Shown here piece by piece: positions 25,461 through 45,214 of a stretch of DNA of 64,000 nt. The position numbers and the translations under genes are program-made. The number at the start of each line of letters is the position of its first letter. Position 1 is the stretch's first letter. This DNA is from Schmidtea nova. Lineage: Eukaryota. The stretch covers positions 20,522,001 to 20,586,000 of the forward strand of contig CM097884.1 of NCBI GenBank assembly GCA_044892505.1, in the 5' to 3' direction. Below the pieces are notes generated by a model. It was not told the origin of the DNA and ran no database searches. It worked only from the letters and a program-made list of their open reading frames with translations.

Positions 25461-26373
25461 TATTTAAGTGACACGAATTAAAATCATGTCTTATGACATC
25501 TAGCGTCAAAAGTTAAAAAAGTAAAAACAAATTAGCCCCTAGAAGTCTTTAATTTATTATTTTACTACATTTTAAGATACTTAATGAAAAATAAAATATA
25601 AATAATATAAATTGCATAATCCCTAGAAGGTTTCAGTCAATAAAGTATTAAAAATAACAAAAATCTACAAAAATTTACAAATTAAAAAATAATCAATAGG
25701 ATCAGATAATAAAATCAATAAATTATTGCATAAGGCATCACATAAAATCTACAAATTAAATAAAAATGCACCACAAAAGAATCAAATCAGTAAAATCAAT
25801 TGTCAATGTTAATAAAATACATCAATAAAGTGCATCAGAATAATTTGGACTAGAATCAATAAGGTTCATCGAACTGATTGTACTTGAATTTCTCATTATT
25901 CTTTGCAATGTATATATTATTAATATATTGATCCTATACCTGTTTGAGCATATTATATATAAGCGTTGATTATTTTTTAATCTAGGAATTTCTACATTTT
26001 GGAATGAAGAATGTAACAAAAGAAATTGCAAATCACCAAAAAAAGGTAAGTGTACATCAGTTAGATAAAACTTTAAAAAACATGGAGCAAATTATTAATT
26101 TTTCATTTGATTAATTTTTATACTTCAATATGTGTAAGTCTTTTTGAAAAAATCAAACATCTAGTCCTATGATTTTTCTGGATGAAAATCTTATTTTCTC
26201 TATTAACATCTCTTATTTTTGTTTTAAAATCTTTTAGAATATTTGAAATTGTAGAAACTACTGTACATGTTCAACTATCGTATTATGTCACTTAATTTCT
26301 TTCCTTTTTTTAAGTTGAGTTTTTCATTTTATTAACTTCATGAATTAAATACAGTAGACAGAAGTGTGCTCCA

Positions 26374-26586
26374 TGACTCATCGTTAAACAAAGACAATGA
26401 CGTCATCGATGAGTCACCCATACCCCCCCGCCCCCCCGATGACTCATTTTTTTCTTTGTTATGACTCATCGATGACGTCATCGATGACTCATCGATGACG
26501 TCATCGATGACTCATCACATGACTCATCGATGACGTCATCGATGACTCATTTCAAATTTGAATTTTATGACGTCATCGATGACTCA
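26374..26586. promoter_or_regulatory. Outer AP-1/CRE array (9 TGA[C/G]TCA + 5 TGACGTCA)
   Basis: Counted directly; sites are mostly in optimal ATGACTCAT / ATGACGTCAT context. Function is inferred. Confidence 0.7.
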
Positions 26587-26680
26587 TTTCAAATTTAAAT
26601 TTTAAATTTCCAAAGGTCAAATAAGGTCAAACCTTCAAACAAGGGTATCATTCGAAAGGTCTTTGAAAGGTCTATCCAAT

Positions 26681-27170
26681 GGTCATACCTTCGAAGGTGT
26701 ATGGAGGGTCCTTAACCTTCAAGGGGTCAAAAACCTTTAACCTTTTACAATCCTTACAAGTTATATATCAAACAAAAGGTAATTGAGAGGTAAGTATGAT
26801 GGTCATACCTTTGAAGGTGTATGGAGGGTCCTTAACCTTCAAGGGGTCAAAAACCTTTAACCTTTTACAATCCTTACAAGTTATATATCAAACAAAAGGT
26901 AATTGAGAGGTAAGTATGATGGTCATACCTTCGAAGGTGTATGGAGGGTCCTTAACCTTCAAGGGGTCAAAAACCTTTAACCTTTTACAATCCTTACAAG
27001 TTATATATCAAACAAAAGGTAATTGAGAGGTAAGTATGATGGTCATACTTTCGAAGGTGTATGGAGGGTCCTGAACCTTGAAAGGGTCAAAAACCTTCAA
27101 CCTTTTTTAATTCTTATAATATGTACATCAAACAAAAGATAATTGAAGGGTGAGTATAATGGTCATACCA
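26681..27170. repeat. 120-bp tandem repeat, ~4 copies, inside the TIR
   Basis: Units start at 26681, 26801, 26921 and 27041 (last one diverged). Mirrored at ~43490-43980. Confidence 0.95.
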
Positions 27171-27194
27171 TTGAAGATTAAATTGTTTTCTTAA

Positions 27195-27396
27195 TGACTC
27201 ATCGGTATGATTTATTTGGATGACTCATTGGGATGACTCATCTACATGATTCATCAGTATGACTCATCAGTATGACTCATCAGTATGACTCATCAGCATG
27301 ACTCATCAGTATGACTCATCAGTATGACTCATCAGTATGACTCATTGGTATGACTCATCGGTATGACTCATCAGTATGACTCATCTACATGACTCA
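27195..27396. promoter_or_regulatory. Inner AP-1 array (14 TGACTCA, mostly 13-bp period)
   Basis: Unit tgactcatcagta repeated. Function is inferred. Confidence 0.7.
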
Positions 27397-28136
27397 TCAA
27401 CAAAAACAAATATTAACAAAGATATTGCAATGCACGTGCAAATTAACAAAGACTTTGCAAAGTGAATGCAAAGAAACAAAGACTAATGAAATATAATTTT
27501 TAATAATAATAATTTTTTGTACAGAGATAACTTGTGTGTGTGTGTGTGTGTTTAAGACAAATTACTGTACTCATTGAACGCGCGTGAAACGCGCGTTCTT
27601 CTTCCTTGTTGTATAAGACAAATCACAGTACGCATTGAACGCGCGTGAAACGCGCGTTCTNNNNNNNNNNNNNNNNNNNNNNNNNNNNNNNNNNNNNNNN
27701 NNNNNNNNNNNNNNNNNNNNNNNNNNNNNNNNNNNNNNNNNNNNNNNNNNNNNNNNNNNNNNNNNNNNNNNNNNNNNNNNNNNNNNNNNNNNNNNNNNNN
27801 NNNNNNNNNNNNNNNNNNNNNNNNNNNNNNNNNNNNNNNNNNNNNNNNNNNNNNNNNNNNNNNNNNNNNNNNNNNNNNNNNNNNNNNNNNNNNNNNNNNN
27901 NNNNNNNNNNNNNNNNNNNNNNNNAAAAAAATATATACCGACTTATATAACTTATAAAAAACTTTATAAAAACCTTATAAAAAATAGAACAATCAAACTT
28001 ATAAATTAACTTATAAAAAAATTTTATAAAAAACCCTGTTATAAAATAGAACAATTAAAAACTAACACATGCAATTAATCGATAAAATTACACAATATAC
28101 AAATAATAATAACAAATAAAAAAATAAATAAAATAT

Positions 28137-31100
28137 TTATTTTTTAAATGAGAAAATAAAATTATTCAAATAATGTTTATNNNNNNNNNNNNNNNNNNNN
28201 NNNNNNNNNNNNNNNNNNNNNNNNNNNNNNNNNNNNNNNNNNNNNNNNNNNNNNNNNNNNNNNNNNNNNNNNNNNNNNNNNNNNNNNNNNNNNNNNNNNN
28301 NNNNNNNNNNNNNNNNNNNNNNNNNNNNNNNNNNNNNNNNNNNNNNNNNNNNNNNNNNNNNNNNNNNNNNNNNNNNNNNNNNNNNNNNNNNNNNNNNNNN
28401 NNNNNNNNNNNNNNNNNNNNNNNNNNNNNNNNNNNNNNNNNNNNNTGTAGACGGCCGATCCTCTAATTCTTCATGTATACGTCTAATGTATGCATTAATT
28501 CTGACCGCTTCTGTTGATTCTCGATCCTCCCAAACATCATCATCAACATCATTATTGTGCACTTCATTTATAATTGTGTTTTCTCCCCGATAATGACCAT
28601 ATGCATAGCTTTTGTTTTTAGACACCCAATTGCGTTTGTCGTCGTTGCAATTGAGTGCCGTTTTTATATTTTTTATACTATATAGTTGGTGATTTTTCGA
28701 ACATATTCGAAACTGCGGGACTTGGTATATCTTATTGTTATTAAAACAATCAAAGTAATTTGAATGGTGAAGCCCCGCAGTAGCTAAACATATACCCTTG
28801 GCTTTCATACTCTCTTCATCGCCAAGTAAACTATAACATTTGGGTCGAAGAAAAACCCACTCTTCATATTTGAAGCCCTTATTTTCGTCCTTAAATTTAC
28901 CTATAACAGAATCCAGATTACGTGAAAATAAGGGATGGTTAGGATTATAATTTGATGTATCCAAGAGTTGATCCCTAACCATAGCAGGCAAAAGAACAGA
29001 CAGTTTACAATTAATGATTTCAAGGAAGAAGGAATCAGTATCTCCTGCGACTATATTTATTTTACAATTAAATTCATTTCTATATTTTTGAAGCTCAACA
29101 TACTGTAATTCATACATTCTAAGTTTAGATAGGTCTAGTACCGTTTGACCTATGTAACTAGGCCTATCTAAACATACTGATTCCTTTCTTAAAAGCACAG
29201 AGATAAGGTTATCGTCTATTTTTGTGGTTTTCCTAAAATATGGACTACTGCTATAGGTAATTAACTTACGTGCAGAATTGCAAAGTCTTAAATTAATACG
29301 TTTTTTAAGATTCTCTACGGTCTTGCCGTAGAGACTGTTATTTAAAAGTTTAAAGTAATTCTTATCCAGCTTCGTGGTGGAAGAAGCTCGCAAAGCAGTA
29401 TTCGTATCCACGTATTTTTTAAATAAAGTAGTTTGCCTAAATCTTATGGCACGATGAATTTTGGTCACAACCACCCCTAACTTCAAAAACATCTGCAAAA
29501 GCCGCCAATGAAGCACATAATTTTTCTTTGGTAAATGCGTCAAAAGAAGCTTTTGCACCTTCGAGCCTGGCGCACACATCTTTTCAGCGGCTACTGGCAA
29601 ATCATCCAGTAAGTCGTGAATAGATGCCGGTATTTCTAAATCAACTTCTATGGTATAACCATAGCTAAGCTGACATAAATCAACCGTAGTGCATTCAAAC
29701 AAGATATTTTCAAGCAAGTGGTCATCCGTGACCCAAACAAAGTCTCCGTCCGGTAAGTTTTGTGAAAGAGCCCAGCCATACAGATTGTTAATATCTATGT
29801 ACAGCAACTCTGTATCTGAGCTCGTTCGCACATGATGTTTATTAACAAAAGTGAGGCCACCCCTGATTCCACCTTCAAAAAAGTTGTACATCTCCATATC
29901 GGTCAAAAGCTCGATAGGAGATTCCAAGGTCATTAAAGCAGAACACCAGCTCATGCCTGGTATGCCTAAAAAATTCAAAGGCTCAAGTCTGTTGTGAGCT
30001 ATACTTTTTGCTCGAAATTGTTGAAAATAATCAGCCAACAGAAATATGTCAAGTTTCATGTAAACCATCATATAATCAAATAATGAGGTACATGAATTTT
30101 CTCTCCATATTTCTTTTGCCTTTTCATAATCAGCAATATCGACACCTTCCCAAATCGGTGGCAATTCATGAGTAGACCTCAAGACTTCTAAAGATGTTGC
30201 TACGTCATATGGAAAAATCCCCTTACTAGTGATAATTGTCCCAATAAATTCCGAAGAAGTAAGTGGGAAAGATGATAAAGTTTTAACAAGACTATTTAGA
30301 GATTCACTTGCAAATTGGTATGAATCTATGAACTTCACTGTGAGTGATCCGATTCTCGCAAAAAGTGCTAGAAACTTTTCACTAGTGACAGGAACACAAC
30401 TAATGTTCCAAGATTCATACTTTGATAATCCGAATTTGAGGATATGATGCAAGTCATATCCCCTTAAATTATGAAATACTATAGGCAAAGTGTGTCTAAT
30501 TTGCCGAGAGACGTTACATTTTTTGCATGCTGCTCCAAGATAAGCACCTGTAAAGTGATCGTGATCTTTAACAGGATTTTCTATTACTTTTTCACACAAG
30601 TAGCAGTGTGTCGCAGCTTGGAAATTTATTATATCAGCATAAGTTAAAATAATCTTCTTATCATAATTTTTATAATAATAAGGTGTTACAATTTTTCTAC
30701 TAATTTGTTCAATTTCGTATAGAAACCGGTCAACACATTCAGTACCAAAAAATGATTTATAAAACTTCTCCCCAGTGAAATTATTGATACATAAAAGCCC
30801 TGCTGAAATGGGCAAGTGTTTTTGAAAGTACTTGGTGTCCCTAGGTAAGATTGCCTCAAAATCGGCATAAATGACAAATGGTGGTGTTACAGTCTTTTTC
30901 CAATCAGTGAATTCCAATAATTTATTCTTAGGCAGAGTGTATAATGTCGTACCTATTTGATTGGCATCACAAAGACCTCGATGACGGTTAAATGTGTCAG
31001 TATTACGAAAGCCATGTAAACACCTAGGGCACCATTTATTATAAATTCTCACTGGGGTTATTGAACTGTTTCGGCAATTAAGAAATCTATTTAAATCATA

Positions 31101-32473
31101 AATAGCTATGTAATGATAAGTTTTTTTAAATTCAAGCAAAAGTAAGTTTATCACTGTTTGTCCAACTATTTTGCTTTTATAAATAATATCTATATACGGA
31201 TGTTTCATCACTTCACTATTATTACTGATGTCAATTAATGCGTTTTCGTCGTAAGATAACACATTAATTGATAATCCTGGATTTAACAATTCAAATCGGC
31301 TAATGTTACTTAGCTTCATTGGCATGTCATTAATGTCATATCTAAGTGATGAAACATCGTAAGAAGAAGGTAGATTTCTAATATTTTCAGGAACTTCGTT
31401 GAAATGTTTAGCTGCTAAAACACTATATAGAAAACAAAGATTGTCGGTGTTGATGACATTGATTACACAATTCTTATGAATAAGAGATTTAGGAGTCTCA
31501 ATAAATTGTTTACCGCTTAACCTGCTTATCTCAGAATATTTGGTCAATACAAAACTTATGTATTCAATTTTATTTATTTTCCAATTCGAACCCTTCTCGT
31601 TCATTTGTGATATTTTTTCATTTAGTATAGTAATACCTTCGTCAACAAAGGTATTACTCCAAAAACGGGCGGAATTTGAAATAACAAAAGACTGATATTC
31701 GTCATCTTTTTCAAATTCCACCATAATACAAAATTGAATTTTAACAGATTTCATTTGAGAAATAATAGAATTTAATTTACTAAGCAAAAGAGAAGGAACT
31801 GAAAGAGTATTTAAATTTAAATGGGCAACATCCATCTTAACGATAATGTGCGATTTATTGAGGTCAGAGTCAACAGTTAAAAGACCTGTACCTATTTGAT
31901 TCACAGAATAAGAGTTGATAATTAAAGGTGTTATTTCCTCCTCATCAGACGAAATAACAATAAGATCAGATTCGTCGTCACTAATATTAATTATTTCGAT
32001 TTTATTAGGATTTTCTATTTTATTGATTTTAGGTAATTTATTAACAATTTCATTTTCTGTTATATGTTTTCGTTTTAATAAATTGGGAACGCTGTCCACA
32101 TTATTTTTTATTAATTTGGGAACGCAGTCCACATTAAAAGAGTTTGGAACAGAGTTCACATTATTTTTTAATAAATTGGGAACGCAGTCCACATTATTTT
32201 TTAATAATTTGGGAACGCAGTCCACATTAGATTGATTATTTTTTAATGTATTTGAAAATATGTTGTTAAAAAGAGTCTTTTTTGATCCTGTAAATTGACT
32301 TAAATGATTTCGATGTTTGCGATAAAAGTTTATATATGTGCTTGTTTCTAAAACTTTGCATATGGGGCATATCAGGTAAAAAACACAATTATATTTTTGC
32401 AAATAATACTTTTCCATAAGACTGTGACAGTCATTATGCAAAGTACTATTGCAGTATGCTGTGTAATATTTGC
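28137..32473 (-). CDS. polB: Protein-primed family B DNA polymerase (pPolB), main exon
   Basis: Pol motifs YIDINNLYG, KLLNNSLYGK and GDTDS; exonuclease motifs YADFE, FHNLRGYD and YMKLD; EndoVII-like CYLC..DHDHFTG..AACKKCN; N-terminal CPIC..H. The frame is open back to a ttag acceptor at 32474-32475. The true stop probably lies in or near the N gap 28181-28445. Confidence 0.97.
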
Positions 32474-32679
32474 CTAAATTAAAAATAAAAACATAAGACT
32501 ATAAGTTTTTTTAAATATTTTTATAGTAATAATTTGTTTATTATATTGATATCATAAAATATCATTGATTAAAATATATATCACATTTAAAGTAATAGAT
32601 TTTCATATCATTGAGTTCATAACAATAAATTAAAATTTTCTTAAAAATTAACAATACTTATAATTACTATACAACTAAT

Positions 32680-33051
32680 ATTGAATTTATACCATAAATT
32701 CCATATTAAATTTATACCATAAATTCCATATTGAATTTATACCATAAATTCCATATTGAAATTATACCATAAATTCCATATTGAATGTATAATATGAAAA
32801 ATAAAATTATTATAAAATCAAAATATATCTTTCTTAAAAATTATTATATAATCAATATACATCTTTCTTAAAAATTATTATTATAAAATCAATATACATC
32901 TTCTTAAAAAATATTATAAAACGAAAAAATATAGTAATTATAAAATGAAATATATATGTCTGTCTTAAAAACAATTATTATACATTCAATATGAAATTTA
33001 TAGTATAAACTCAATATGGAATTTATACTATAAATTCAATATCAGTTGTAT
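32680..33051. repeat. 25-bp tandem repeat (4 copies) with an inverted degenerate copy, flanking a second AT-rich repeat
   Basis: attgaatttataccataaattccat at 32680, 32705, 32730 and 32755; reverse-complement copies at ~32980-33051. Confidence 0.85.
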
Positions 33052-33140
33052 AAAATGAAAAATAATATATATCTTTTGTACACAAAATAAAATCATTACA
33101 AAATTAAAAATAAAATTATTACAAATTAAAAGTAAAAATA

Positions 33141-33761
33141 TTATAAAAATAATAAATATTTACATTTCTGACGACCATTATAACGGTCATCTACCAGATC
33201 TACTGGTGCAGCGTCCATAGAATCATCCCTATTCAGGGGCATATTATCATCCCTATTCAGGGGCATATTATCATCCCTATTCAGGGGCATATTATCATCC
33301 CTATTCAGGGGCATATTATCATCCCTATTCAGGGGCATATTTTCTTCCCTAATAAGGGGCATATTTTCTTCCATATTCAGAGGCTTAAAATTTTCGGTAT
33401 TTTCAAAATCATTTCTTTCTTCAGCTTTAAAATGAAAATAAATTTATAAATAATAAAATAATACAATAAATTACCATCAATGTCGACATTTAACCGCTCA
33501 TTTCTGCTTGCTGCCTCGTATTGATTTAAAATTGAAACATTTATTACTGAAATAATAATATTATTTTAATTAAAAATTATTTTAATTTTTACCATTTTTG
33601 TTCTCCTTTTCATTTTTAAAATTAATTGGCTTTGCTATATTATCAAACATGTTGCCTAAAGAAATTTACATGTTATAAAAACAATAAATTAAAAATAAAT
33701 TAATATTACCAATTTTGTTCATCTTTATCATTTTCTTGATATTTTCTGAAATATTCTGCAT
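33141..33761 (-). CDS. Four small spliced exons (33761-33710, 33655-33593, 33546-33475, 33424-33164) encoding an acidic repeat region; either the pPolB N-terminus or a stand-alone short protein ending at 33141
   Basis: Three GT-AG phase-1 introns (54, 46 and 50 nt) give one open frame MQNISENIKK...DIDAEERND...(MPLNRDDN)n...GRQKC. The donor at 33163 is phase-compatible with the polB acceptor. Confidence 0.7.
33224..33372. repeat. 24-bp coding tandem repeat (MPLNRDDN, ~6 units)
   Basis: atcatccctattcaggggcatatt repeated. Confidence 0.9.
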
Positions 33762-34241
33762 ATTTTTAATATTAATTTGAAAAAGTTTTTGTTTAAATTG
33801 TGACGAAATAATGAAAACATAGGGTATATATCACGTTTATTACAAACTTTATTCACGAGCCAATCACAAGCGAGATAGGGTAGAAAAAGTATGTGTGTAC
33901 ACTGAGTAAGTATGTTAAAAATCTCTCACCAAGTATGTGTGTTAATAATTCACTCACCAAGTATGAATCATGTCTTTGTTATATTGCACGATGCATGTCG
34001 GATGCAACGATACAAAGACACTACGTGACTAAAGTTTTTATGAAATATCTTATGGGTGTAGATGCAGATGTGAATACACCCAAGTTGATTTATATGTGAA
34101 ATAATTGAGTGTCTGCATGCGTGCCTGCATGCAATTTCTTTATAATTATCGAAAAGTATAGCTAGATGGATGTTAATCTGCAAATTGGATGTGAATTCTG
34201 CAAGTTTATAAAAAATAATAAATAAAACACAAATAATACAT

Positions 34242-34643
34242 TTATTGTTTTAAATAATCAATTACACCAGACAAGCAACCTTTATATGCACACATACTAT
34301 GGTCTTTATATGGACATAAGATATTTTCTGGAACATCTTCAAATTCTTTAAAATTATATTTAATTAATCTCAATTTCGGGAAATATTTCTTCAAAACTTG
34401 CAACTTTTCATTATCTGTAACATAGAATATAGCTCCTTTATTTTCAATATCATTCATAATGCATTTTGGACAAAAATAATCTTGTCCTTCAAACGATTCT
34501 ATACGATCAGGCCAGAAAGATAAATCACTGTATATATAATACAAGGGTGTGAAAATACTATTTACATTCATAATACATAATTCCTTAATAATTGTTCCTC
34601 CAATATCATTATAACCGTACATATCAATAAAATAACAAGTCAT
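34242..34643 (-). CDS. 133-aa accessory protein, possibly DEDD/RNase H-fold derived, with a C-terminal Cys/His cluster
   Basis: Clean ATG ORF in the operon-like array; N-terminal YFIDMYGY...IIKEL and C-terminal CPYKDHSMCA. Family call is tentative. Confidence 0.65.
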   Translation of the reverse strand: MTCYFIDMYGYNDIGGTIIKELCIMNVNSIFTPLYYIYSDLSFWPDRIESFEGQDYFCPKCIMNDIENKGAIFYVTDNEKLQVLKKYFPKLRLIKYNFKEFEDVPENILCPYKDHSMCAYKGCLSGVIDYLKQ

Positions 34644-34675
34644 TTTTTACAATAACATTTATTAAACTAAATTGT

Positions 34676-35051
34676 TTATAACATTGATTTTAGCCATGCA
34701 AGGCAATGTTGTCCACAAGTGATTGTTAATGGATGTTGATACCGAATTCTATTATACACAATAGGTTTACCAATAGTTTGTAATTTTCGAACAAGTAAAT
34801 TTGGATAATAATATCCAAAGGGATCAAATACATGTATCCGATCCGGTTTCACGTAAACCGCAATCCAATGTTCACCGCCCAAAGTAGAAGTGTGAGTATT
34901 TACAATGATGGCTTGATTCATTTTCAAATAAGGAATTTTATCTAACGGAAAAACTCCAATAAACTGGTTTCCCAATAGTTTTTTACCTTGTTGTAATACC
35001 TGAATAGAACTAATTAAAATAATAAATTATTCAATTAAAAACTTACTCCAT
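34676..35051 (-). CDS. Adenain-like cysteine (maturation) protease; join(35051-35047, 35009-34676)
   Basis: GEHWIAV, FDPFG and YQ....CGQHC catalytic motifs. A 37-nt GTAAGT...TAG intron restores MDSIQVLQQGKKLLGNQFIGVFPLD. Confidence 0.92.
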
Positions 35052-35088
35052 AATAATAGAAATAATAATAACTTTGGTTATTTATACT

Positions 35089-35169
35089 GTTTGAGCTCTG
35101 CTCAAACCAATACTGCTCAAATCAGCAATGTTTGAGCTCAAACCAATAATGTTTGAGCTCTGCTCAAAC
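35089..35169. repeat. Three GTTTGAGC(TCT)GCTCAAAC palindromes between the MCP stop and the protease start
   Basis: 35089-35107, 35130-35143 (no loop) and 35151-35169; a half site lies near 35114. Confidence 0.85.
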
Positions 35170-36384
35170 CAGTACTGTTCGATTGGCAGTAATTTGTACT
35201 TCATTTTCAAACAATCCATATATAATTACATGAACCGGTTCATCAATGGGTTTTGCAAACTTTATATCTAGCCTTAAATTACCGTTTTGTGGGATTTGAC
35301 TTTGATTTAAATCGAAATCGGGAGCCAGAACAAATGTAAAGAATGGATATTTTGCTTTAAATTCATCCAGACTTATACCACAATTCAAGTTTTTATCCAA
35401 ATATCCTAAATTTCGGACAAGACTTTGCATATATGTGGCACTAAAATTATCATTTTCAAAATCTTGAGTATAAGTTTCTCGATAATCGGTATTTTTCGAC
35501 AATGATAATGAAGTTACATTAAAGTGTTTGAATGAAGATGAAGATTCAGCATATGATCCGTTATATTGATTTTCAGTTTGAAAAGCTACAAGAATGAAAT
35601 TAGGCATTCTTCTATCTCCAAATATTTGCTCCTTGTAAAATGATGATGCACCTTTCCCAATAGCAAACGATACGATTTCTTTGGATTTTATCGGATAAAT
35701 TGCATGTTTGCTATTTAAACCAATTTGATGACCGGCCAAAACTGAAGATTCACACCGAACTCTTCTTACCATTAATTTAGCGTCTACTAATTGGAGTATT
35801 GGTTTCCCAGTTGCCGATTTCAGTGATAATGCAGAATCAGATCGCTTCAATCTAATATGTACATTAACTCCGGGAAGTAAGTATTTAGGTTGATCCATAA
35901 AATCAAGTTGTAATGATGAACACATGTTAAAAAGTTTCGATCCCTTGATCCACTTTTTTCTATCGTCACTTGCACCATATCCCATTGGAGTAAGACAAGT
36001 TTCTTTTGAATCGTTCGTATAATTTAAAATAGTTTCGATTATTGCCTTGTGTGCATATGTATTGTTTCCACCCTCGATTTTTATATTATTAAATCCAAGA
36101 ATCACATCTTTGAAAAGTGTATGAAACAAGTAATTATTAGGTACTACATCACTCGCATCAACTAATTTATTTTTATCTTTATCTACAACTTTGACCGTAA
36201 CGGATAATAACGTATCGTTCAAATCCAAATATTCGGTTGCCGATCCATTAATGTAAAATTCAACATCATTTCTACTATCTGTAATAGAATTCATTGGAAA
36301 CACATCTTCAAACACCCCATATTCAATAACTGCTTGGGGGCTTGGTCGATCAAAAATACATAATTCAGATTTACCGCAAATCAT
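35164..36384 (-). CDS. Major capsid protein (double jelly-roll, Polinton PY/hexon-like)
   Basis: 406 aa; KSELCIF..P.Q, VEFYI.G...YLDL..T.L.V.VKV and C-terminal GNLRLDIKF....V.VIIYG patterns typical of Polinton MCPs; expected position. Confidence 0.9.
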   Translation of the reverse strand: MICGKSELCIFDRPSPQAVIEYGVFEDVFPMNSITDSRNDVEFYINGSATEYLDLNDTLLSVTVKVVDKDKNKLVDASDVVPNNYLFHTLFKDVILGFNNIKIEGGNNTYAHKAIIETILNYTNDSKETCLTPMGYGASDDRKKWIKGSKLFNMCSSLQLDFMDQPKYLLPGVNVHIRLKRSDSALSLKSATGKPILQLVDAKLMVRRVRCESSVLAGHQIGLNSKHAIYPIKSKEIVSFAIGKGASSFYKEQIFGDRRMPNFILVAFQTENQYNGSYAESSSSFKHFNVTSLSLSKNTDYRETYTQDFENDNFSATYMQSLVRNLGYLDKNLNCGISLDEFKAKYPFFTFVLAPDFDLNQSQIPQNGNLRLDIKFAKPIDEPVHVIIYGLFENEVQITANRTVLV

Positions 36385-36761
36385 TCTTCAAATATTGTTC
36401 CATGACCTTTCATTCGTTTGTTTATACGTCTTCGTTTACGTCTTGGTCCTACTGGTACAGGTTCCGGTTCATTTTTTGTAAACATATTTGTAATTGAAGG
36501 AATCATTTTTGTTACAGTAGGTATAGCTTTATTAACTTCGGCCAAAGCATTTGTTTTCAATGATGGTAATATTTTATTATCTTTCATGATAACATCCTTG
36601 GCAGTATTGAATCCAAAACTACCCAGTCGCTTAAGTAGTGGAAGTGCAAATCTACCAATAGTTTTCAACCAACCTGATCCATATTGTTTACCTATAAAAT
36701 ATGGTAATTCGCCACCAGTTTGGCTATTACTGTACAAAGAAACTATATCTGGATTACTCAT
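36381..36761 (-). CDS. PZ / pVI-like core protein
   Basis: QTGG..PYFIGKQYGSG followed by the amphipathic helix WLKTIGRFALPLLKRLG and a basic tail RRKRRR. Confidence 0.75.
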   Translation of the reverse strand: MSNPDIVSLYSNSQTGGELPYFIGKQYGSGWLKTIGRFALPLLKRLGSFGFNTAKDVIMKDNKILPSLKTNALAEVNKAIPTVTKMIPSITNMFTKNEPEPVPVGPRRKRRRINKRMKGHGTIFEE

Positions 36762-37779
36762 GATGTTTTCGAAAATGTAGAGTCAAATGAGTTTTCGAAT
36801 TTTTTGGAAAGTTTATTAAATTACCTTTATCATCTCGGATATTTATTTCTATATTGTTTATACAGGATGTTGAAACAGTTACATACATTGGATTTTCAAC
36901 TTGTATTTGAACAACCTCATCCTGTTCATATTTTTCAATCCATACCGATTTCAGTAAAGGAACCAATGAATCTCCAACAATTATAGGTTCAATAATGTTA
37001 CTGTAAATGAACATTTGCTGATGAAGTTTAATTATTTTCGGTTTATTTATTCCAGTAGTGAATTTTCCATCTTGAGCATATGTTGCTTTCAATAAACCCA
37101 ATGTTTTTACTAGGTTATTATCAAAAGTTATTTCGCTAACATCTGGATTCAAACTGAATTTGAAGTAAGTATCATCTAACAATTCCACCGACTTAAAAAT
37201 ACTTGCACAATTTAGAATTAAATATGATTTCATTTCATCCAGTTTCGATATGTATAAATTATCGGCAAATGTATGGATAAATACAGAATCAGCCTTATAC
37301 TCCATCTTTAATCTAATATTTTCAGTAACTGGACCATCTATACCATAATATGGTAACGGTATCTTGTATGTATCTGTAGGACTTACAATACTCTGTTTCG
37401 TTAATCCCATTCTTTTCGCCATTGCCAAAGTATCAAATGTTATAGTGAAGGGAAAATGATCACAGGTAAAATAAATAGATTGTCTATCACTCAACATTTG
37501 AGCAATATCATCGGCAGGATTAGATATGTCAACTTCACAAAATTGATTGTTAATAATCAAATTTTTATATTTTGTATGTATAGTTTTCTTTTTGTATCGA
37601 ATTTCAGCTTTACTGTAAAATGGAAATGGATTATACACAAATGTAAAGTCTAAGAGAGCGACTTCCCAAATCCCGTCCAAATACATTGGATTTTGGAGAT
37701 TGACCATGAAATTACTTGCTGTATTATCTGGATGTATGTCTGGACAACTGTTGCTAGGTAGAATCATATAAAAATTCAT
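36754..37779 (-). CDS. Minor capsid protein (penton-like, single jelly-roll)
   Basis: MNFYMILPSNS..NT.SNF...L...WEVAL; MFIYSNII....VGD..VPLL; NIEINIRD..G..I.F. Start at 37779 (ATGA overlap with the integrase stop) is preferred over 37806. Confidence 0.9.
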   Translation of the reverse strand: MNFYMILPSNSCPDIHPDNTASNFMVNLQNPMYLDGIWEVALLDFTFVYNPFPFYSKAEIRYKKKTIHTKYKNLIINNQFCEVDISNPADDIAQMLSDRQSIYFTCDHFPFTITFDTLAMAKRMGLTKQSIVSPTDTYKIPLPYYGIDGPVTENIRLKMEYKADSVFIHTFADNLYISKLDEMKSYLILNCASIFKSVELLDDTYFKFSLNPDVSEITFDNNLVKTLGLLKATYAQDGKFTTGINKPKIIKLHQQMFIYSNIIEPIIVGDSLVPLLKSVWIEKYEQDEVVQIQVENPMYVTVSTSCINNIEINIRDDKGNLINFPKNSKTHLTLHFRKHHE

Positions 37780-38820
37780 TTTACTAGGTTTTTTGACGAT
37801 ATCCATGATGGTTCCTTATATCCATGCCACTTGACATAGTATTGTTTATCCTTACCTACCATTTTAGTTTTCAATATTTTTTGAATTCTAAATATTGTCG
37901 GTGGAGGTATAACTTGTAATTCTTGTTCATAGAATTTCCCACTGACTATATTGTTATCAGAGTCAGAAATAGTATACATGACAGGATTCTGGACTGTGTT
38001 GACCTTCGATATTTTAAATACCTCATCACTCCAATTACTATCAAAATTTTTAATGAATGGCGATGCACTAATTTTACTAATTCGAACATGATCACCTATT
38101 TTATATTTTGGTTTCTTGATTATTGTATCACTCACGATATTTTCAGTATTAACTACTTCTGCAGGTTTCCTGCCATTTATACCTCGATGAGCAGAATGAT
38201 TATAACTATGGATCATTTGTGGTAAAACATTAATCCATGTTTTATTACCTTGATGTACAAAATACTTTTTGAGCCGATCTCGTAATGTACGATTAAATCT
38301 CTCGACATGAGCGGCTTTGAATTGCGAGAATACCGAATAATGATTGATTCCCTTGATAACTTCCTTGACTTTACTGTTGTAAAATTCCTTACCTAAAAAA
38401 TATTAAATCAATAAATTATAATTAAAATTTACCCAAATCGGTTTGTAAATTTGTTGGACGATCCTTTTTCATCATTGCTTTGATCGCGATTGCCATATCA
38501 TTACCAGATTTCGATTTTACTGCGATTGCCCGCGCAAAACGACTGTAAACATCAATACATGTTAAAATATACTTGTATCCCTTGTTAATTTTTGAATACG
38601 GAATCATTTCCATCAAATCCATTTGCCACAAATCATTGATTCTATACGTTTTATATGATCTAGTTGGAAACCGTTTCAGCATCGGTTTGTTTAGACTGTA
38701 TGCAAGTTGCCCCGATAACCAGCTTTGTGTCTGTTGTTTCGACTTCTGTACTTTTTTCCTTAACTTTTCGACTCCACCGAAACCGGCTTCGTCTTTCGGG
38801 TTCGTCCAGATCTTCTCCAT
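37776..38820 (-). CDS. Retroviral-type DDE integrase with C-terminal chromodomain; join(38820-38433, 38392-37776), 334 aa
   Basis: WQMDL (D1), LTCIDVYSR, QTDLG|KEFYN (D2, rejoined across a 40-nt GT-AG intron), HVERFNRTL (E), YNHSAH, chromodomain IQKILK...YYVKWHGY..PSWI. Confidence 0.95.
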
Positions 38821-38875
38821 TACAACAAGAAGATTTAAAGTTTAAATTTAAATTAGGTAATGATTGACCCATTGT

Positions 38876-39403
38876 TTATGACGTTCTTTTTCCCAATAAA
38901 CCAGCACCACCTAATAACGATAAAGCTAGGGGTAATAATGCAGCAATAAACCCTCCTTGTTGTTTATATATTATTTTACGCATAAGTTTTTTATTTTTTG
39001 TTTTTACAAGTGATAACAATGGTTTTTTATGCTTGTTCAAAACCCGACGATTAGAAGGAGTTAGATTCATTTTACCTCGTACGACTTTAATTAAAATAGC
39101 GAGTAAATCATCAATGACGTAATTGGGAAACGACTGAAGAATACCCATTCTTCTAGCACTGGGGGCTTTTAGCAATGCATTAAAAAACGGAAAACTCCGA
39201 TGATGTATTTGTTTAGGATTAGATTTCAAAATAGGGGGAATTTGATTTTGTTTGGGAAAATTATCCATAATTAGTTTTTTCGAAGGAGTATAACTTGTTT
39301 TAGAAACGGGTTTCGAAACTGATTTCTTTGTTTTCTTTGTTTTCTTCATTGTTTTTCTTGCCTTTATCAAGCGCTCAAACTTTACTCTAGATTTCATTAA
39401 CAT
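38876..39403 (-). CDS. Basic core protein with pX/mu-like C-terminus
   Basis: Lys-rich. Ends KQQGGFIAALLPLALSLLGG, resembling adenovirus pX GGFLPALIPIIAAAIG. Confidence 0.75.
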   Translation of the reverse strand: MLMKSRVKFERLIKARKTMKKTKKTKKSVSKPVSKTSYTPSKKLIMDNFPKQNQIPPILKSNPKQIHHRSFPFFNALLKAPSARRMGILQSFPNYVIDDLLAILIKVVRGKMNLTPSNRRVLNKHKKPLLSLVKTKNKKLMRKIIYKQQGGFIAALLPLALSLLGGAGLLGKRTS

Positions 39404-39423
39404 GATTACTACTGTAAATATAT

Positions 39424-40047
39424 TTAACTTTGTTTATAAACCATGGCTCCTTCCTTGTTAAAAATATCTGTTCTAACTCTTAAATCATCACTGCATTGTT
39501 GCGTAAAATCCAAGAAAAGATATCCATGAGGAGCTTTTGTAGCATCCTGAAACGCATCAATCAAGAAATTCCGATTAGAGGGGTATGCTTGTCTTGCCAG
39601 AAAATCAATAACTGTTGCATCACGAGGATTTTTAAAAACAACAAGATATTGAACATTTAAATTACGAGTTCGATGACTACCACCCTGATGAAATAAATTC
39701 TGAGTAATAAAAATAACTGTAACACCTTTGTGTCTAGCGATTTTCGTAAATAAATTATTAAAATCCTTTTCTTTATTTGCTTCTTGATACAAGTCATCAA
39801 TAATAATCACATCCCATTCTCTTAATCTAGATGACCAGTTTTTATCGAAACCTTTTATGATTGTCATTTTTATTTTACAAAACTGATCTTGAGTCATACC
39901 GCTTTCGTCGTCAGCACCCCTATGCCAATAAATTTTATTAAACTTTGATTTGAATAATTTAGATTGTAATAATTTACAAACAAATAAAGTTTTTCCGCTC
40001 CCGCTCGGGCCGACAATTTGGTACACTGCATCATTTCTTAATTCCAT
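39424..40047 (-). CDS. A32/FtsK-like DNA packaging ATPase
   Basis: Walker A GPSGSGKT, Walker B IIIDD, motif C ARH.GVTVIFITQNLF. Confidence 0.95.
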   Translation of the reverse strand: MELRNDAVYQIVGPSGSGKTLFVCKLLQSKLFKSKFNKIYWHRGADDESGMTQDQFCKIKMTIIKGFDKNWSSRLREWDVIIIDDLYQEANKEKDFNNLFTKIARHKGVTVIFITQNLFHQGGSHRTRNLNVQYLVVFKNPRDATVIDFLARQAYPSNRNFLIDAFQDATKAPHGYLFLDFTQQCSDDLRVRTDIFNKEGAMVYKQS

Positions 40048-40136
40048 TTTTGTAATTATTTATTAGTATTATTATTGTTTATATTGATTAAAATATTAAT
40101 TATCTCTTTGTTGTTAGATTTAAAATATTTTTAATA

Positions 40137-40604
40137 ATGATTAGAAACATTAATTACAAGGGTAAGACAGATGTGTCGCACATGATATTTCCAACTGGGA
40201 AACCACAGCAAATTGTAGATAGAAGTGGAAAATACCCAATAATATACTTTAAGACAGGCAGATATAGAATAATGGGATGCAAGGAATTTATTAGTGATGA
40301 AAAAGTAAAGTCTCACGATTTAACAATACAATCGATAACTGTGACTGCAGATTTAGGATTTATTTGTAATTTAAATGAGTTATCTAAATTGATTCCATGT
40401 GTTTATGAACCAGAATTATTTCCAGCTTTAAGATATACAAAATATAATCCAATGTGTGTCAATATTTTTGCTAGTGGTAAAGTAGTCATATTAGGATTAA
40501 AAAATAAAGACTATGCTAATATAGTTGATAATATTATTAACGATATAAAATCAATTATAGAAGATAAAGCCTTTGTTGATTTCATACTAACATGTGACTC
40601 ATGA
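40137..40604 (+). CDS. TATA-binding-protein-like protein (155 aa, core-only)
   Basis: Repeat 2: IQSITVTADLGF..L..L....VYEPELFPALRY..NPMCVNIFASGKVVILGLK, matching the TBP C-terminal repeat. Repeat 1 is shortened: IRNINYKG...GKPQQI...PIIYFKTGRYRIMGCK. Confidence 0.88.
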   Translation: MIRNINYKGKTDVSHMIFPTGKPQQIVDRSGKYPIIYFKTGRYRIMGCKEFISDEKVKSHDLTIQSITVTADLGFICNLNELSKLIPCVYEPELFPALRYTKYNPMCVNIFASGKVVILGLKNKDYANIVDNIINDIKSIIEDKAFVDFILTCDS

Positions 40605-40738
40605 CTGCAATATTCATGCAATGGAAATGCACGATTCTGATTGGTCGAGTGTGTATCGATAGAATAAAGACATGTTGTGCATACTTTATTCTTATTGGTT
40701 GAAAGTTGTTCATTTCGTACATGATGTGTGTTTCTATC

Positions 40739-40748
40739 GTATATATAC
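40739..40748 (+). promoter_or_regulatory. Putative TATA element upstream of the 40782 gene; ATTGG (CCAAT) boxes near 40641 and 40694
   Basis: gtatatatac 34-43 nt upstream of the ATG. Confidence 0.4.
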
Positions 40749-40781
40749 TAAGAACATTCGTTCATAATTTAGATTTTAAAA

Positions 40782-41367
40782 ATGTGTTTAAAAGAAACTA
40801 TGTTAAAAAGTGGTAAGGATTTTAATTAATTCTTTTCAATTTTAATATAATTTCTTTTTAGAAAAATTAATGAATGTCCTATATGGAAAGCTGGAGGAGA
40901 TGTTCCCGAATTTAATGACATCCCTGACTTATACGGCACCAGAACTCTTTCCGTATAAGATTCAGGTGCTGACTGGAATTGATGTCAATCAGCTCATCCT
41001 CGATCATCGGGCAAATAATCTCAATGAATTGCCAGTGGTAGCCGAGCACTTTCTCTGTGCATATAAGTGCGGAAATTGCGTGGAGAGGATCCGCCGATTC
41101 AATATTTGGCTCCTCAGAAACGCATTGAAGGAATTCGAGAATCAAAACCTCGAAACAATTGAGGAAGAAGATATGAAGGAGTCCTGGCCAAATTCGACTC
41201 CGGATCAATCTGATTGCCCAACTCTGGATGGGCCATATCCTATCGAATCGGATGAGCCAATGGAGTCTCCCGAATCTCCAGATTGTGCGGAATGCCACCG
41301 TAAGGCAGAGGATTGTGATGATAAAATAGGTTCGCAATCTCTTGGTGGTGATCCGTCAGACATTTAA
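40782..41367 (+). CDS. 178-aa acidic, Cys-containing accessory protein; join(40782-40812, 40862-41367)
   Basis: G|GTAAGG...TTTAG 49-nt phase-1 intron joins MCLKETMLKS to EKLMNVLY. Coding exon is GC-richer than its flanks; CGNC and CAEC; D/E/P/S-rich tail. Confidence 0.75.
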
Positions 41368-41937
41368 ATGTTGTTATTTTTTAGTTTAATGTCATTTTAG
41401 TTTGGTTATTTTTTAGTTTAATAAAAGTTTTTTAATGATTTTAGTTTTTATTGATTTTAGTTTTTTAGTGATTTTAGTTTTTTAGTGATTTTAGTAATAG
41501 TTTTTAAGTATTAGTTTTTACTTGACTTTAAGTTATTATTTTGAATTTAATTAATTATTTTAACTTTAAGTATTTAGTATTAAACTTTTTATTTACTAAG
41601 ATTAAAAAATAGTATTTGAATAAAAATTATTGTGAAATAAATTATTGTGATATAAATAAATACATATTTTATCCATATTTTATTATTGTGATATAAATAA
41701 ATACATATTTTATCCACTAACAGATCCTTACTATCAGTACATTAGTAGCAGAACATCTTTTGTTATGGTTTTTATGTGCAAAAGCTCATTACTTGAACAC
41801 ACACACACACACACACACTTACAACAAAGACATGCATAACGCGTGCAATACAAATGCATGATTGTGATTGGACAAAGGCATCCAGTCCTCACTATAAATA
41901 CAAAGTCATTTCTACAAATTTGTCACAATTTTTAAAA

Positions 41938-42354
41938 ATGGATTCACGAAAACGAGGTTATGATGTCAGCGAAGAAAGATTATTCCCGACTGAGGTGAAA
42001 CCAGTCCAGATGTATTATGATAGCCGAATCTATTTCTTGGTAGAAGAAATTCCGTTTCGCTTATCTTATCCCGTAAAATTAACAAAGTCGTTGTTTGATA
42101 ATCTATCTATTATTATTGATAAAGAGGATATTATCGCACTAAATAGAGTATTTTCAAAAATCAATGTGAATTTAATTTGTAAAGAAACGATGTATATCAA
42201 TAACAGGAAGACTCGTTTCCATAATGCTTATCAAACAATCGATTTCATTGATCAAGAACACTGGTTCGTTACGATAATCATTCAAGGATACAAGGTTGAT
42301 AAAAAGGAAGTGACAACTCCAATTTGGAGAGTTGATAATGCACGATACGCCTAA
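41938..42354 (+). CDS. 138-aa hypothetical protein, possible OB-fold ssDNA-binding protein
   Basis: ATG 41938 lies downstream of ATTGG (~41866) and TATAAATA (41893). Beta-rich C-terminus WFVTIIIQGYKV...PIWRV. Family call is weak. Confidence 0.65.
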   Translation: MDSRKRGYDVSEERLFPTEVKPVQMYYDSRIYFLVEEIPFRLSYPVKLTKSLFDNLSIIIDKEDIIALNRVFSKINVNLICKETMYINNRKTRFHNAYQTIDFIDQEHWFVTIIIQGYKVDKKEVTTPIWRVDNARYA

Positions 42355-42415
42355 TTGTTATTTAATAAATTTTACTATGAACAAATTTAGTTTTTTATTT
42401 TATTTTGTATTTAAA

Positions 42416-43018
42416 ATGAAACTGCTTATAACCATGTTTGTATTTTTATTGTGTGTTCAAAATACTGATGGAGAACAGGCTTTAGAAGCTTGCCAATCAA
42501 CCCATCCGTTTAGAAGAGAAGATAGTACTTGTGCGAGTTATAATGAAATATGTGTTTACTCAAACACTGAATGCAATCAAATAAAATTACAATGTGATCA
42601 ATGTCCTTCAAAAAAAAATAATTTGATTAATAATGATATTGAAAAAATAATTAGCAAAATAAAATTACAATGTCCTTCAAAAAATGATTTGATTAATAAA
42701 GAAATGGAAAAAATAATGATGAAAATAATGATGAAAATTGTTGAAAGTTTGAAATGTACGAATCAAACAATTGTTAAAAAACAATATGAAGTCAGATACC
42801 AAAATCAAACAGTTGAAAGCGAAAAAACATCGATAGTTTTACATTACATAAGTTTATTCATATTAATAATGATCTTGATATTGGCAACATCGATAAGGTT
42901 AGAGAATATTAATAAGAATAAAATTCCTGTAAATAATGTTCCTATGAATAATATTCCTAGTAGTAATAATTTTGAATCCAAATTTTGTACACGGTCGCAA
43001 CAATATATTTATAAATAA
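42416..43018 (+). CDS. 200-aa type I membrane glycoprotein with a Cys-rich ectodomain
   Basis: Signal peptide MKLLITMFVFLLCVQNTDG, Cys cluster, internal IKLQ..CPSK duplication, two NQT sequons, TM segment IVLHYISLFILIMILILATSI, short cytoplasmic tail. Confidence 0.8.
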   Translation: MKLLITMFVFLLCVQNTDGEQALEACQSTHPFRREDSTCASYNEICVYSNTECNQIKLQCDQCPSKKNNLINNDIEKIISKIKLQCPSKNDLINKEMEKIMMKIMMKIVESLKCTNQTIVKKQYEVRYQNQTVESEKTSIVLHYISLFILIMILILATSIRLENINKNKIPVNNVPMNNIPSSNNFESKFCTRSQQYIYK

Positions 43019-43049
<31 letters not shown>

Positions 43050-43052
43050 TAA

Positions 43053-44295
43053 ACAACAAGGGAAGAAGAACGCGCGTTTCACGCGCGTTCAATGAGTACA
43101 GTAATTTGTCTTAAACACACACACACAAGTTATCTCTGTACAAAAAATTATTATTATTAAAAATTATATTTCATTAGTCTTTGTTTCTTTGCATTCACTT
43201 TGCAAAGTCTTTGTTAATTTGCACGTGCATTGCAATATCTTTGTTAATATTTGTTTTTGTTGATGAGTCATGTAGATGAGTCATACTGATGAGTCATACC
43301 GATGAGTCATACCAATGAGTCATACTGATGAGTCATACTGATGAGTCATACTGATGAGTCATGCTGATGAGTCATACTGATGAGTCATACTGATGAGTCA
43401 TACTGATGAATCATGTAGATGAGTCATCCCAATGAGTCATCCAAATAAATCATACCGATGAGTCATTAAGAAAACAATTTAATCTTCAATGGTATGACCA
43501 TTATACTCACCCTTCAATTATCTTTTGTTTGATGTACATATTATAAGAATTAAAAAAGGTTGAAGGTTTTTGACCCTTTCAAGGTTCAGGACCCTCCATA
43601 CACCTTCGAAAGTATGACCATCATACTTACCTCTCAATTACCTTTTGTTTGATATATAACTTGTAAGGATTGTAAAAGGTTAAAGGTTTTTGACCCCTTG
43701 AAGGTTAAGGACCCTCCATACACCTTCGAAGGTATGACCATCATACTTACCTCTCAATTACCTTTTGTTTGATATATAACTTGTAAGGATTGTAAAAGGT
43801 TAAAGGTTTTTGACCCCTTGAAGGTTAAGGACCCTCCATACACCTTCAAAGGTATGACCATCATACTTACCTCTCAATTACCTTTTGTTTGATATATAAC
43901 TTGTAAGGATTGTAAAAGGTTAAAGGTTTTTGACCCCTTGAAGGTTAAGGACCCTCCATACACCTTCGAAGGTATGACCATTGGATAGACCTTTCAAAGA
44001 CCTTTCGAATGATACCCTTGTTTGAAGGTTTGACCTTATTTGACCTTTGGAAATTTAAAATTTAAATTTGAAATGAGTCATCGATGACGTCATAAAATTC
44101 AAATTTGAAATGAGTCATCGATGACGTCATCGATGAGTCATGTGATGAGTCATCGATGAGTCATCGATGACGTCATCGATGAGTCATAACAAAGAAAAAA
44201 TGAGTCATCGGGGGGGGCGGGGGGGTATGGGTGACTCATCGATGACGTCATTGTCTTTGTTTAACGATGAGTCATGGAGCACACTTCTGTCTACT
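43053..44295. repeat. Right terminal inverted repeat (1243 bp)
   Basis: Reverse complement of the left TIR. AP-1 arrays at 43264-43465 and 44074-44274. Confidence 0.95.
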
Positions 44296-44375: not shown

Positions 44376-45214
44376 GGTATCCCGGCAAAATAGCCCAGAC
44401 AATAAAACTCAATTTATTGGAATTGTCAACATTTATTAATGAAATACAAAAAGCTGAAATGATTGAAATGTATCCAAATCATCTCTGTATCGGTAATGAA
44501 ACCAATCTATAAACATTATTATAATCTGATCTAATGGTTCACTAGGTGAAATGTTAGCAGTTAGGTAAATAAACTTGTTTTAGAGTCAAGTTTACAAACA
44601 TTAGAATAAAGTTTTATGGATGGGAGCTGTCAATCAATCACAGAATCGTGCAGTACAATTAAAAAACGGTGCGATCATAAAGAAAATCTTAATCAATTGA
44701 GTCTATAATTGCATTTTAATTTAAATAAAATTCGACCTCAACAACTAATTATGGAGAAAAAAAAATCTCAGAAAGGAAAAGAGTTTCTATTAAACGATGG
44801 ATTTCGCTATCGCAAGGCGAAAGTCAATGCTGACGGAAGTGCATCGTGGAGATGTGTCGAGGCCAATTGTAAAGGAAGATTGAAGGTAGTTGAAGATTCT
44901 GCCACAACGATTACCGAGCATGGTCATCCAGTTGACTTTTCGAAGAATGAAGCTGCCAAGTCAGTTGCAGAGATGCGGAGACGCGGAGACGTGCTGCTGA
45001 GGGCGTTGAGAAACCTCGTCAGATAATTCAACTTTTTTAATAGAATGATAAAATAAACAGTAATTTAGTTGCAATTTTTTAATTTTCTAGTAATCTCAAT
45101 AAAATAGCTTTTTTTAAACCTAATTAAACCTTTTGAGCCTTTATTTTATTAATAAATGTTGACGGGGCTATTTTGTCGGGGCTATTTTGTCCTGGGCTAT
45201 TTTGACGGGCTACG
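44376..45214 (+). mobile_element. Non-autonomous MULE (Mutator-like) element, 839 bp
   Basis: 9-bp TSD ATCATTAAC (44367-44375, 45215-45223). Termini ggtatcccggcaaaatagccc / gggctattttgacgggctacg; three ggctattttg subrepeats at the right end. Confidence 0.9.
44751..45026 (+). CDS. FLYWCH zinc-finger (truncated MULE transposase N-terminus)
   Basis: SQKGKEFLLNDGFRY...WRC....CKGRL....H.H. Confidence 0.8.
   Translation: MEKKKSQKGKEFLLNDGFRYRKAKVNADGSASWRCVEANCKGRLKVVEDSATTITEHGHPVDFSKNEAAKSVAEMRRRGDVLLRALRNLVR

Follow-up and report, generated by a model that had tools for sequence, protein, structure and literature searches.

Polintons, Mavericks, and adintoviruses are described in PMC8097293 and PMC8502044 as elements with a characteristic size, terminal inverted repeats, a 6-bp target-site duplication, AG...CT ends, an integrase, an A32 ATPase, a C5 protease, and an accessory region near one end. 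These features are shared by an element of 17,943 bp in Schmidtea nova contig CM097884.1, where it occupies positions 26353-44295 of the window (the whole 64,000-nucleotide stretch analyzed here, positions 20,522,001 to 20,586,000 of the contig). Its ends read AGTAG...CTACT, AAATAC flanks it on both sides as the 6-bp target-site duplication, and Pfam matched 3 Polinton hallmark genes: the rve integrase (PF00665, 9.5e-9), the A32 ATPase (PF04665, 1.1e-6), and the C5 protease (PF00770, 8.6e-6). Vertebrate Mavericks are intronless and built of 2 modules according to PMC8097293, whereas this Polinton has likely short introns and a single structural block. The literature searched gives no account of how Polintons turn on their capsid genes. 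Here we propose, with moderate confidence and from patterns in sequence, that a short TATA-binding protein (TBP) encoded by this Polinton would act as a dedicated late-promoter factor on a TATAAAC(A) box, recruiting host TFIIB and RNA polymerase II.

The label "TBP" appears in the legend of Fig. 5 on MELD viruses in Starrett et al. (PMC8502044; preprint 10.1101/697771), and a TBP in such an element is therefore not entirely unreported. The supplement of that paper, about 4 million characters that may be incomplete, contained neither the text "TBP" nor any of 4 peptide motifs. The accessible main text of PMC8097293, PMC11161782, 10.1101/2023.08.22.554363, and 10.64898/2026.10.13.758929 makes no mention of TBP or TATA, and the accessible portion of PMC2396422 holds nothing on TATAAAC. 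No account of the TBP family or of the box was found in the Polinton literature, where our coverage was thin for subscription papers, Repbase notes, and supplements.

The TBP-like protein and its DNA face

Relatives of the TBP-like protein were found in 94 of 101 candidates, and 81 of these matches, mostly short (about 150 residues), had E <=2.6e-15, far above cellular TBPs. The family profile recovered matches with E <=1e-30 that fall into 69 clusters at 50% identity, and the alignment used for the counts below contains 70 rows (the query and 69 others), fragments having been left out. Phylogenetic analysis separated this family from 6 cellular TBPs on a long branch with a support of 100/100. 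The predicted model of the protein (pLDDT 94.6) matched the TBP fold with a Z of 12.4 and a root-mean-square deviation of 2.5 over 141 residues. Its second lobe is complete, and its first lobe consists of 4 strands with no helices. The first helix of the model does not appear before residue 79, and gaps in the alignment span the first-lobe helices. Canonical TBP secondary structure served as the reference for these missing first-lobe elements.

The DNA-contact positions of TBP, taken from Table 1 of PMC12529657, show consistent replacement in this family: V71>N in 67 of 70 rows, V122>R in 69, T124>M in 70, N159>S in 69, V161>T in 63, L205>N in 70, and T215>L in 66. Three of the 4 intercalating phenylalanines are kept (F116, F190, and F207, 70/70 each), while Phe at the F99-equivalent columns is found in 0/70. 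Other contact residues retained are N69 and V213, with P191 mostly kept (60/70). This pattern of replacement and retention reflects a conserved surface change and not decay.

According to PMC7221094, 2 glutamates in a C-lobe loop of TBP contact TFIIB, and the contacts for TFIIA, TAF1, Brf, Mot1/BTAF1, and NC2 are on the first lobe. The family keeps the TFIIB-binding glutamates (E91 in 68/70, E93 in 70/70) together with the YEPELF TFIIB loop. An intact TFIIB loop on a protein whose first-lobe co-activator surface is gone would suit a protein acting as decoy or repressor, one that ties up host TFIIB or obstructs the TATA promoters of the host, leading to host shut-off or self-silencing, and the reversed copy of the late box upstream of the TBP's own gene (see below) would fit such a role as well. 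A pure decoy has no need of invariant new residues on its DNA face, however, and would leave unexplained the sense-strand box found before almost every structural gene. We therefore regard this explanation as improbable.

A box before structural genes and 2 promoter classes

On its minus strand the element has 12 copies of the word ATAAACA, and on its plus strand none, compared with 6 and 6 in the host flanks. Nine of the 12 sit 7-124 nt before a start, and 3 do not. All 6 occurrences of the longer TATAAACA in the window are located 34-100 nt before a left-arm start. A metagenome scan yielded 56 related loci from 130 candidate stretches, falling into 34 clusters at 85% nucleotide identity. Across 22 dereplicated structural-block clusters from these relatives, the box occurs 71 times in sense and 4 times in antisense, and TATAAACA is the top 8-mer, with 57 observed versus 7.4 expected under a third-order Markov model. 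Counting boxes within 120 nt of a start, with one gene per cluster and windows shorter than 100 nt dropped, sense ATAAAC precedes 54/66 structural starts versus 5/47 TBP or single-stranded-DNA-binding protein (SSB) starts, with a background of 4%. The box was found before 12/12 ATPase genes (11 of them at 32-37 nt), 8/8 major capsid genes, and 7/7 copies of a 126-residue open reading frame (ORF). The base preceding ATAAAC is T in 40/50 cases; a CA initiator is not positioned after the box, the maximum being 8/49 at one offset.

Codon choice provides a further view of this box. Within the final 45 codons of structural genes, Ile-Asn pairs are written ATA-AAC in 27/39 cases, versus 6/61 in gene bodies, and Tyr-Lys-Gln/His is written with TAT-AAA in 15/16 cases where the box overlaps the coding end of the preceding gene. 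The box is kept at synonymous codon sites, which shows constraint at the level of DNA. We also considered whether the box is a polyadenylation signal and rejected this, as it precedes the ATPase, where there is no upstream gene on the same strand, and sits in coding sequence before stops. The box in the spacer between the ATPase and TBP genes is likely the late promoter of the ATPase (Table 1).

Upstream regions of TBP genes have a different composition. [GC]TATAWA is present in 15/31 and CCAAT, which we take to be an NF-Y-type site, in 9/31 (0/300 shuffles each), and forward ATAAAC is at chance. A CA initiator lies 31-32 nt past the TATA box in 16/25 TBP/SSB promoters. The CCAAT and TATA combinations that an earlier note on this DNA had placed before the second and third rightward genes of the window (gene 2 and gene 3, the SSB gene) are indeed there, with CCAAT inverted, and the 2 promoters share a motif at 18/20 nt (40625 and 41852) that was reached by 0/200 Markov resamples. 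In a second group of TBP genes, that of the window among them, a TGTTT-type word stands reversed in the upstream region, for the most part at 43-64 nt (12/31; 0/300 shuffles). There are thus 2 promoter classes, a TATAAAC(A) late type and a host type, the latter found at the SSB gene, gene 2, and many TBP genes.

These observations could also be explained if the box is real but is read by host factors, either a forkhead protein or host TBP/TFIID using it as a weak variant of TATA, with the element's own TBP doing another job or merely helping. ATAAACA fits the consensus of a forkhead-type site, and the enrichment of the reversed TGTTT-type word upstream of TBP genes is what an orientation-free site would produce. 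No Polinton lacking a TBP was available as a control either. On the other hand, the 71:4 strand bias and the fixed distance of 32-37 nt at the ATPase are better suited to a core-promoter element, as is the T that so often precedes ATAAAC, and the conserved rewiring of the TBP DNA face requires a target. On balance, we consider it rather unlikely that host factors are the readers.

A proposed late switch and the divergent layout

Under the reading that we favor, with the TBP as late-promoter factor, host factors (NF-Y-type proteins at CCAAT and host TBP) would start the host-type genes for replication. Basic leucine zipper (bZIP) factors bound to arrays in the terminal repeats are a probable trigger, although this step is more weakly inferred. 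The element's TBP would then accumulate and bind the TATAAAC(A) sites that precede the packaging genes, the integrase gene, and the putative capsid genes; we would expect it to favor TATAAACA over TATAAAAG or scrambled DNA. Once bound, it would recruit host TFIIB and RNA polymerase II, and without the first-lobe helices engaged by TFIIA, TAF1, Mot1/BTAF1, and NC2, it would escape normal TBP control. Each of the tightly packed structural genes would be driven from its own promoter, often inside the preceding gene, with transcript starts expected about 30 nt past each box. In this copy of the element the region upstream of TBP includes the ATPase box in reverse orientation, and occupancy of that box could plausibly feed back on TBP, which is again a weaker step. 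A bolder version, which we offer tentatively and with less confidence than the role of the single protein, is that a widespread Polinton clade carries a one-protein late switch: a helix-stripped, TATAAAC-specific TBP of about 150 residues that engages host TFIIB directly while ignoring TFIID, TFIIA, Mot1, and NC2. Among orthogonal TBP-promoter pairs of eukaryotic nuclei it would be the smallest, with stress-responsive bZIP arrays arming the termini and feedback through the reversed box.

Several points weigh against this model. The link between the box and the protein is one of co-occurrence only. The search for a Polinton without TBP found none: viral contigs gave no relative, and genome contigs gave 3 loci, of which the single long one (L057) has a TBP and 2 (L058 and L059) are fragments. 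L057 counts in favor of the model: it was retrieved through a capsid alignment and not through TBP, and has 7 boxes in sense and 0 in antisense. (The records of all 3 loci are labelled as bacterial metagenome-assembled genomes, and are probably mis-binned eukaryotic or viral contigs.) TATAAAC is a single base away from a host TATA box. Exceptions to the distribution of the box also exist: only 2/8 integrase starts have it within 120 nt, it is present at 5 TBP/SSB starts, one copy is found 124 nt ahead of the polymerase ORF, and the protease of the window has TATAAATA in its place. The window's own TBP gene is without a canonical TATA box and without a canonical CCAAT box, the plus strand of the spacer having neither. 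As for the counts, boxes at orthologous sites are inherited, so that p-values overstate independence, the motif patterns were picked after the data had been viewed, and several of the starts assigned to SSB genes are probably Met codons internal to the gene, behind an intron. Finally, first-lobe residues were mapped by sequence alignment across large deletions.

The earlier note had proposed a different arrangement, in which the right arm may be a self-contained divergent cassette fired by host bZIP factors through an AP-1 site at the TBP stop, after which the TBP and an acidic protein together activate the whole left arm. The layout it described is present in the window, with an AT-rich spacer (90% AT) between the leftward ATPase and 4 rightward non-core ORFs encoding TBP-like, acidic Cys-rich, SSB-like, and membrane proteins, the first recognized by Pfam and the third by its fold. 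Its motifs are present too, including the AP-1 site at 40595-40604. This site does not rise above chance density, however, with 2 sites per 14.9 kb of element interior versus 8 per 44.9 kb of host flank; it could serve the gene 2 promoter, while the AP-1 arrays (46 sites), which the note does not mention, are in the terminal repeats.

Gene order in the relatives does not bear out the cassette. It could be read in 31/56 loci (23 clusters) that have a Polinton core gene. TBP is co-directional with and upstream of the ATPase in 13/31 (8 clusters), whereas in 16/31 (13 clusters) it forms the tail end of the structural block, and a head-to-head arrangement is seen in only 2/31, both with intervening ORFs. 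Head-to-head TBP copies do not group in the tree, which is poorly resolved, so a single origin is possible. Relatives of the SSB gene flank TBP in 20 loci and are upstream of it in 18/18 cases detected by tblastn; 2 further families weakly related to this gene are found in 14 loci. The 4-gene divergent cassette is not conserved, and the note's module is to that extent contradicted. We also observed a ubiquitin-conjugating enzyme, a RING finger, and a leucine-rich-repeat protein as accessory genes near TBP in relatives (L004:222-719, L038:1710-2171, and L026:1918-3330).

Searches with genes 2 and 4 against protein libraries and the related loci gave no match, and the acidic protein of gene 2, proposed as a co-activator, has no detectable homologue. 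A [YF]-x-APEL motif in gene 2 offers some support for the cassette, as it has 6 occurrences in the 56 loci, all in ORFs just downstream of TBP, with Y-x-APEL genes following TBP in 4 of them (L001, L006, L011, and L012; 2 clusters). Gene 2 may, by this motif, be a member of a fast-evolving TBP-linked family, one Y-x-APEL relative of which has a late box in place of the host-type promoter. A likeness of Y-x-APEL to the APE motif of kinases, or to YEPELF in the TBP loop, is unsupported. A predicted complex of TBP with gene 2 residues 1-98, run without an alignment, scored 0.08 (mark 0.34). The data support no role for the acidic protein.

The division into 2 arms is not supported either. The left-arm genes have boxes of their own, the left arm includes a promoter of the host type (about 33830-33866), and gene 4 of the right arm has a late-type box with one mismatch, TATGAACA, about 40 nt upstream. 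The regulatory unit is the promoter class of each gene and not the arm. Taken together, we give very little credence to the cassette as proposed. What survives of the note's cascade is an early/late switch by the element's own TBP, which is supported by inference from the TATAAAC(A) promoter box and the rewired TBP surface, evidence that the note had not cited; the acidic protein and the arm-level split drop out.

Other features of the element and comparison with known systems

Table 1. Positions of the main features within the window.
Feature	Position	Strand	Details
Left terminal inverted repeat	26353..27616		23 AP-1 and 5 cAMP response element (CRE) sites; 13-bp and 120-bp tandem arrays
Family-B DNA polymerase-like ORF with endonuclease VII (HNH) domain	28446..32417	-	3' end reaches N
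Third host-type promoter	33794..33866	-	Inverted CCAAT, TATATA, GTCACAATTT initiator-like word as at SSB gene; read from sequence
Putative minor capsid, 126-residue ORF, putative major capsid, C5 protease, 133-residue ORF	34242..37806	-	TATAAACA boxes starting 36862, 36426, 34680
rve integrase with chromodomain	37776..38820	-	Pfam; GATAAACA box (37850) inside 3' end
A32-type packaging ATPase	39424..40047	-	Pfam; TATAAACA box at 39431-39438 inside 3' end, serving next gene
Spacer	40048..40136		89 nt, 90% AT; between ATPase start (40047, -) and TBP start (40137, +)
TATAAACA box of spacer	40076..40083	-	About 35 nt before ATPase ATG; reversed, 61 nt upstream as seen from TBP gene
TBP-like gene	40137..40604	+	155 residues; Pfam PF00352, E 6e-15
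AP-1 site	40595..40601		TGACTCATGA at 40595-40604; at TBP stop
Gene 2 host-type promoter	40625..40747	+	20-nt motif with inverted CCAAT (40640), second ATTGG (inverted CCAAT, 40694), TATA 40740
Gene 2, acidic, Cys-rich	40782..41367	+	Likely 2 exons; start at 40782 probable
SSB gene host-type promoter	41852..41931	+	20-nt motif with inverted CCAAT (41867), TATA box TATAAATA (41893), initiator-like TCAC
Gene 3 (SSB)	41938..42354	+	138 residues; predicted SSB with oligonucleotide/oligosaccharide-binding (OB) fold of T7 gp2.5 / Enc34 / African swine fever virus (ASFV) CP312R type
Gene 4, Cys-rich	42416..43018	+	Hydrophobic N-terminus; one transmembrane-like stretch from about residue 136; 10 Cys; start at 42416 likely
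Right terminal inverted repeat	43049..44295		23 AP-1 and 4 CRE sites

The terminal repeats, about 1.25 kb each, are identical at 1244/1245 aligned bases between left and right. The AP-1 sites of each repeat fall in 16 units of the 13-bp array and in an 11-12-bp array with the CRE sites, and 22/23 per repeat are extended palindromes; a 120-bp tandem repeat is also present. Adenovirus termini have factor sites that aid the replication origin. The arrays here could be transcriptional enhancers, possibly stress-responsive, or aids to a replication origin. No AP-1 array was found in the 56 related loci (maximum 4 sites), few of which can reach a terminus. The flanks of the element are AT-rich and contain mobile-element remains (a reverse transcriptase with GIY-YIG, a FLYWCH ORF, and a DDE transposase) at 6182-7396, 44751-45026, and 50835-51503. 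Tens of thousands of assembled contigs from 4 runs (X1-X4) align to 28450-43050 at 90-99% identity, which suggests a large and diverse Polinton family in that organism.

The left arm contains further genes of interest. ORFs of 406 and 350 residues are conserved in relatives and placed in the order expected for genes of double jelly-roll major and single jelly-roll minor capsid proteins; we take them to be putative capsid genes from position, size, and resemblance, since searches of protein-family and structure libraries with these candidates gave no match. The putative minor capsid gene is tandemly duplicated in one relative (L004:5616-7687), with its own box before each copy. The ORF of 1.3 thousand residues that we presume, from family-B motifs, to be a candidate for the protein-primed polymerase of Polintons had no polymerase match in Pfam, PHROG, or PDB. 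An HNH/endonuclease VII domain lies inside it at residues ~593-636, and such a domain is described in 10.1101/2023.08.22.554363 as common to nematode and oomycete pPolB2 only. The gene behind the left-arm host-type promoter (33140-33870, minus strand) is small, has an 8-residue repeat, lies upstream of the polymerase, and is likely multi-exon. A 70-residue ORF with a Met-Gly start, a Cys-Cys pair, and its own box (38660-38872, minus strand) overlaps the integrase start out of frame; similar ORF starts precede the integrase in relatives, and a lipid-modified virion protein is possible. The 133-residue ORF (34242-34643, minus strand) is conserved, Cys/His-rich, and of no known family; many relatives have it immediately ahead of TBP, for which it is a candidate partner.

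Introns are likely at several very short AT-rich GT-AG stretches: 38393-38432, 40813-40861, and about 35000-35046, before the protease ORF. The first is a 40-nt stretch that breaks the integrase ORF (38432-38393) and is likely an intron, an insertion being the alternative, and the second is a predicted 49-nt intron in gene 2. SSB genes of relatives L005, L013, L015, and L017 also appear spliced. None of the 15 listed joints (of 263) in runs X1-X4 matched the predicted introns; these runs are assembled contigs, many of them variants, and extend over each of the 30 bins, intergenic DNA as well. Their depth differs between regions and gives no ranking of genes.

Of the 2 right-arm proteins without homologues, that of gene 2 has 32 D/E versus 13 K/R and 7 Cys in 165 residues. 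The likely start of gene 3 is 41938, because the TATA box would fall inside the longer ORF from 41854, as would CCAAT, and that ORF was rejected. The gene 3 model (pLDDT 86.8) has an OB fold of the gp2.5/Enc34 type, and its 4 best structure matches among 48,161 chains, all of the gp2.5/Enc34/CP312R type, were 8hw5 (Z 7.5), 4klk (7.3), 5odk (7.2), and 1je5 (6.5). It also matches giant-virus proteins at E 2e-6, while an Atlas search gave no match. Compared with the SSBs of T7 (gp2.5), Enc34, and ASFV (CP312R), it differs in a Z below 8, an identity of 4-11%, a compact length of 138 residues, and a C-terminus without an acidic tail, 18/18 aligned members ending a few residues past the last strand. 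Gene 3 is more simply explained as a predicted replication protein supporting the polymerase than as a regulator.

Polintons have long been inferred to be viruses, and a dedicated box before each structural gene, selected at synonymous sites, argues for their expression being a regulated program to this day. The box and the TBP form a defined protein-DNA pair that is open to in vitro testing. If the proposed mechanism is true, they would provide a natural test of TBP specificity residues and a very compact orthogonal TBP-promoter pair.

The Polinton TBP has the saddle fold and the L5.1 Phe in both lobes of cellular and giant-virus TBPs as given in PMC7221094, with a YEPELF loop as in eukaryotic TBP. 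It differs from cellular TBP in a first lobe without both helices and one strand, in having 3/4 Phe, and in the 7 replaced contact positions. In giant-virus TBPs the residues that contact TFIIB have diverged, and a TFIIB encoded by the virus itself is often present (PMC7221094), whereas the Polinton TBP keeps these residues and no TFIIB gene was seen.

Herpesvirus vTBPs, namely ORF24 of KSHV (Kaposi's sarcoma-associated herpesvirus), BcRF1 of Epstein-Barr virus, and UL87 of human cytomegalovirus, resemble it in their TBP fold, in a polar, rewired DNA face, and in a TATA variant before structural genes. V122, T124, V161, L205, and T215 are changed in both KSHV ORF24 and the Polinton TBP. The replacement residues are different, however, as is the box (TATAAAC(A) versus TATT in herpesvirus late promoters). 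ORF24 lacks the TFIIB glutamates that the Polinton TBP keeps, and keeps the F99 that the Polinton TBP loses. The herpesvirus proteins are also far longer (about 750 residues versus 155), while the Polinton TBP is a single domain without a polymerase II-binding or C-terminal domain, and no partner set was found for it. By analogy, the Polinton TBP appears to work like a herpesvirus vTBP without being a member of the vTBP class. The 2 are likely of independent origin, and the Polinton system would, if the proposed mechanism is true, likely be an independent invention of the herpesvirus vTBP strategy.

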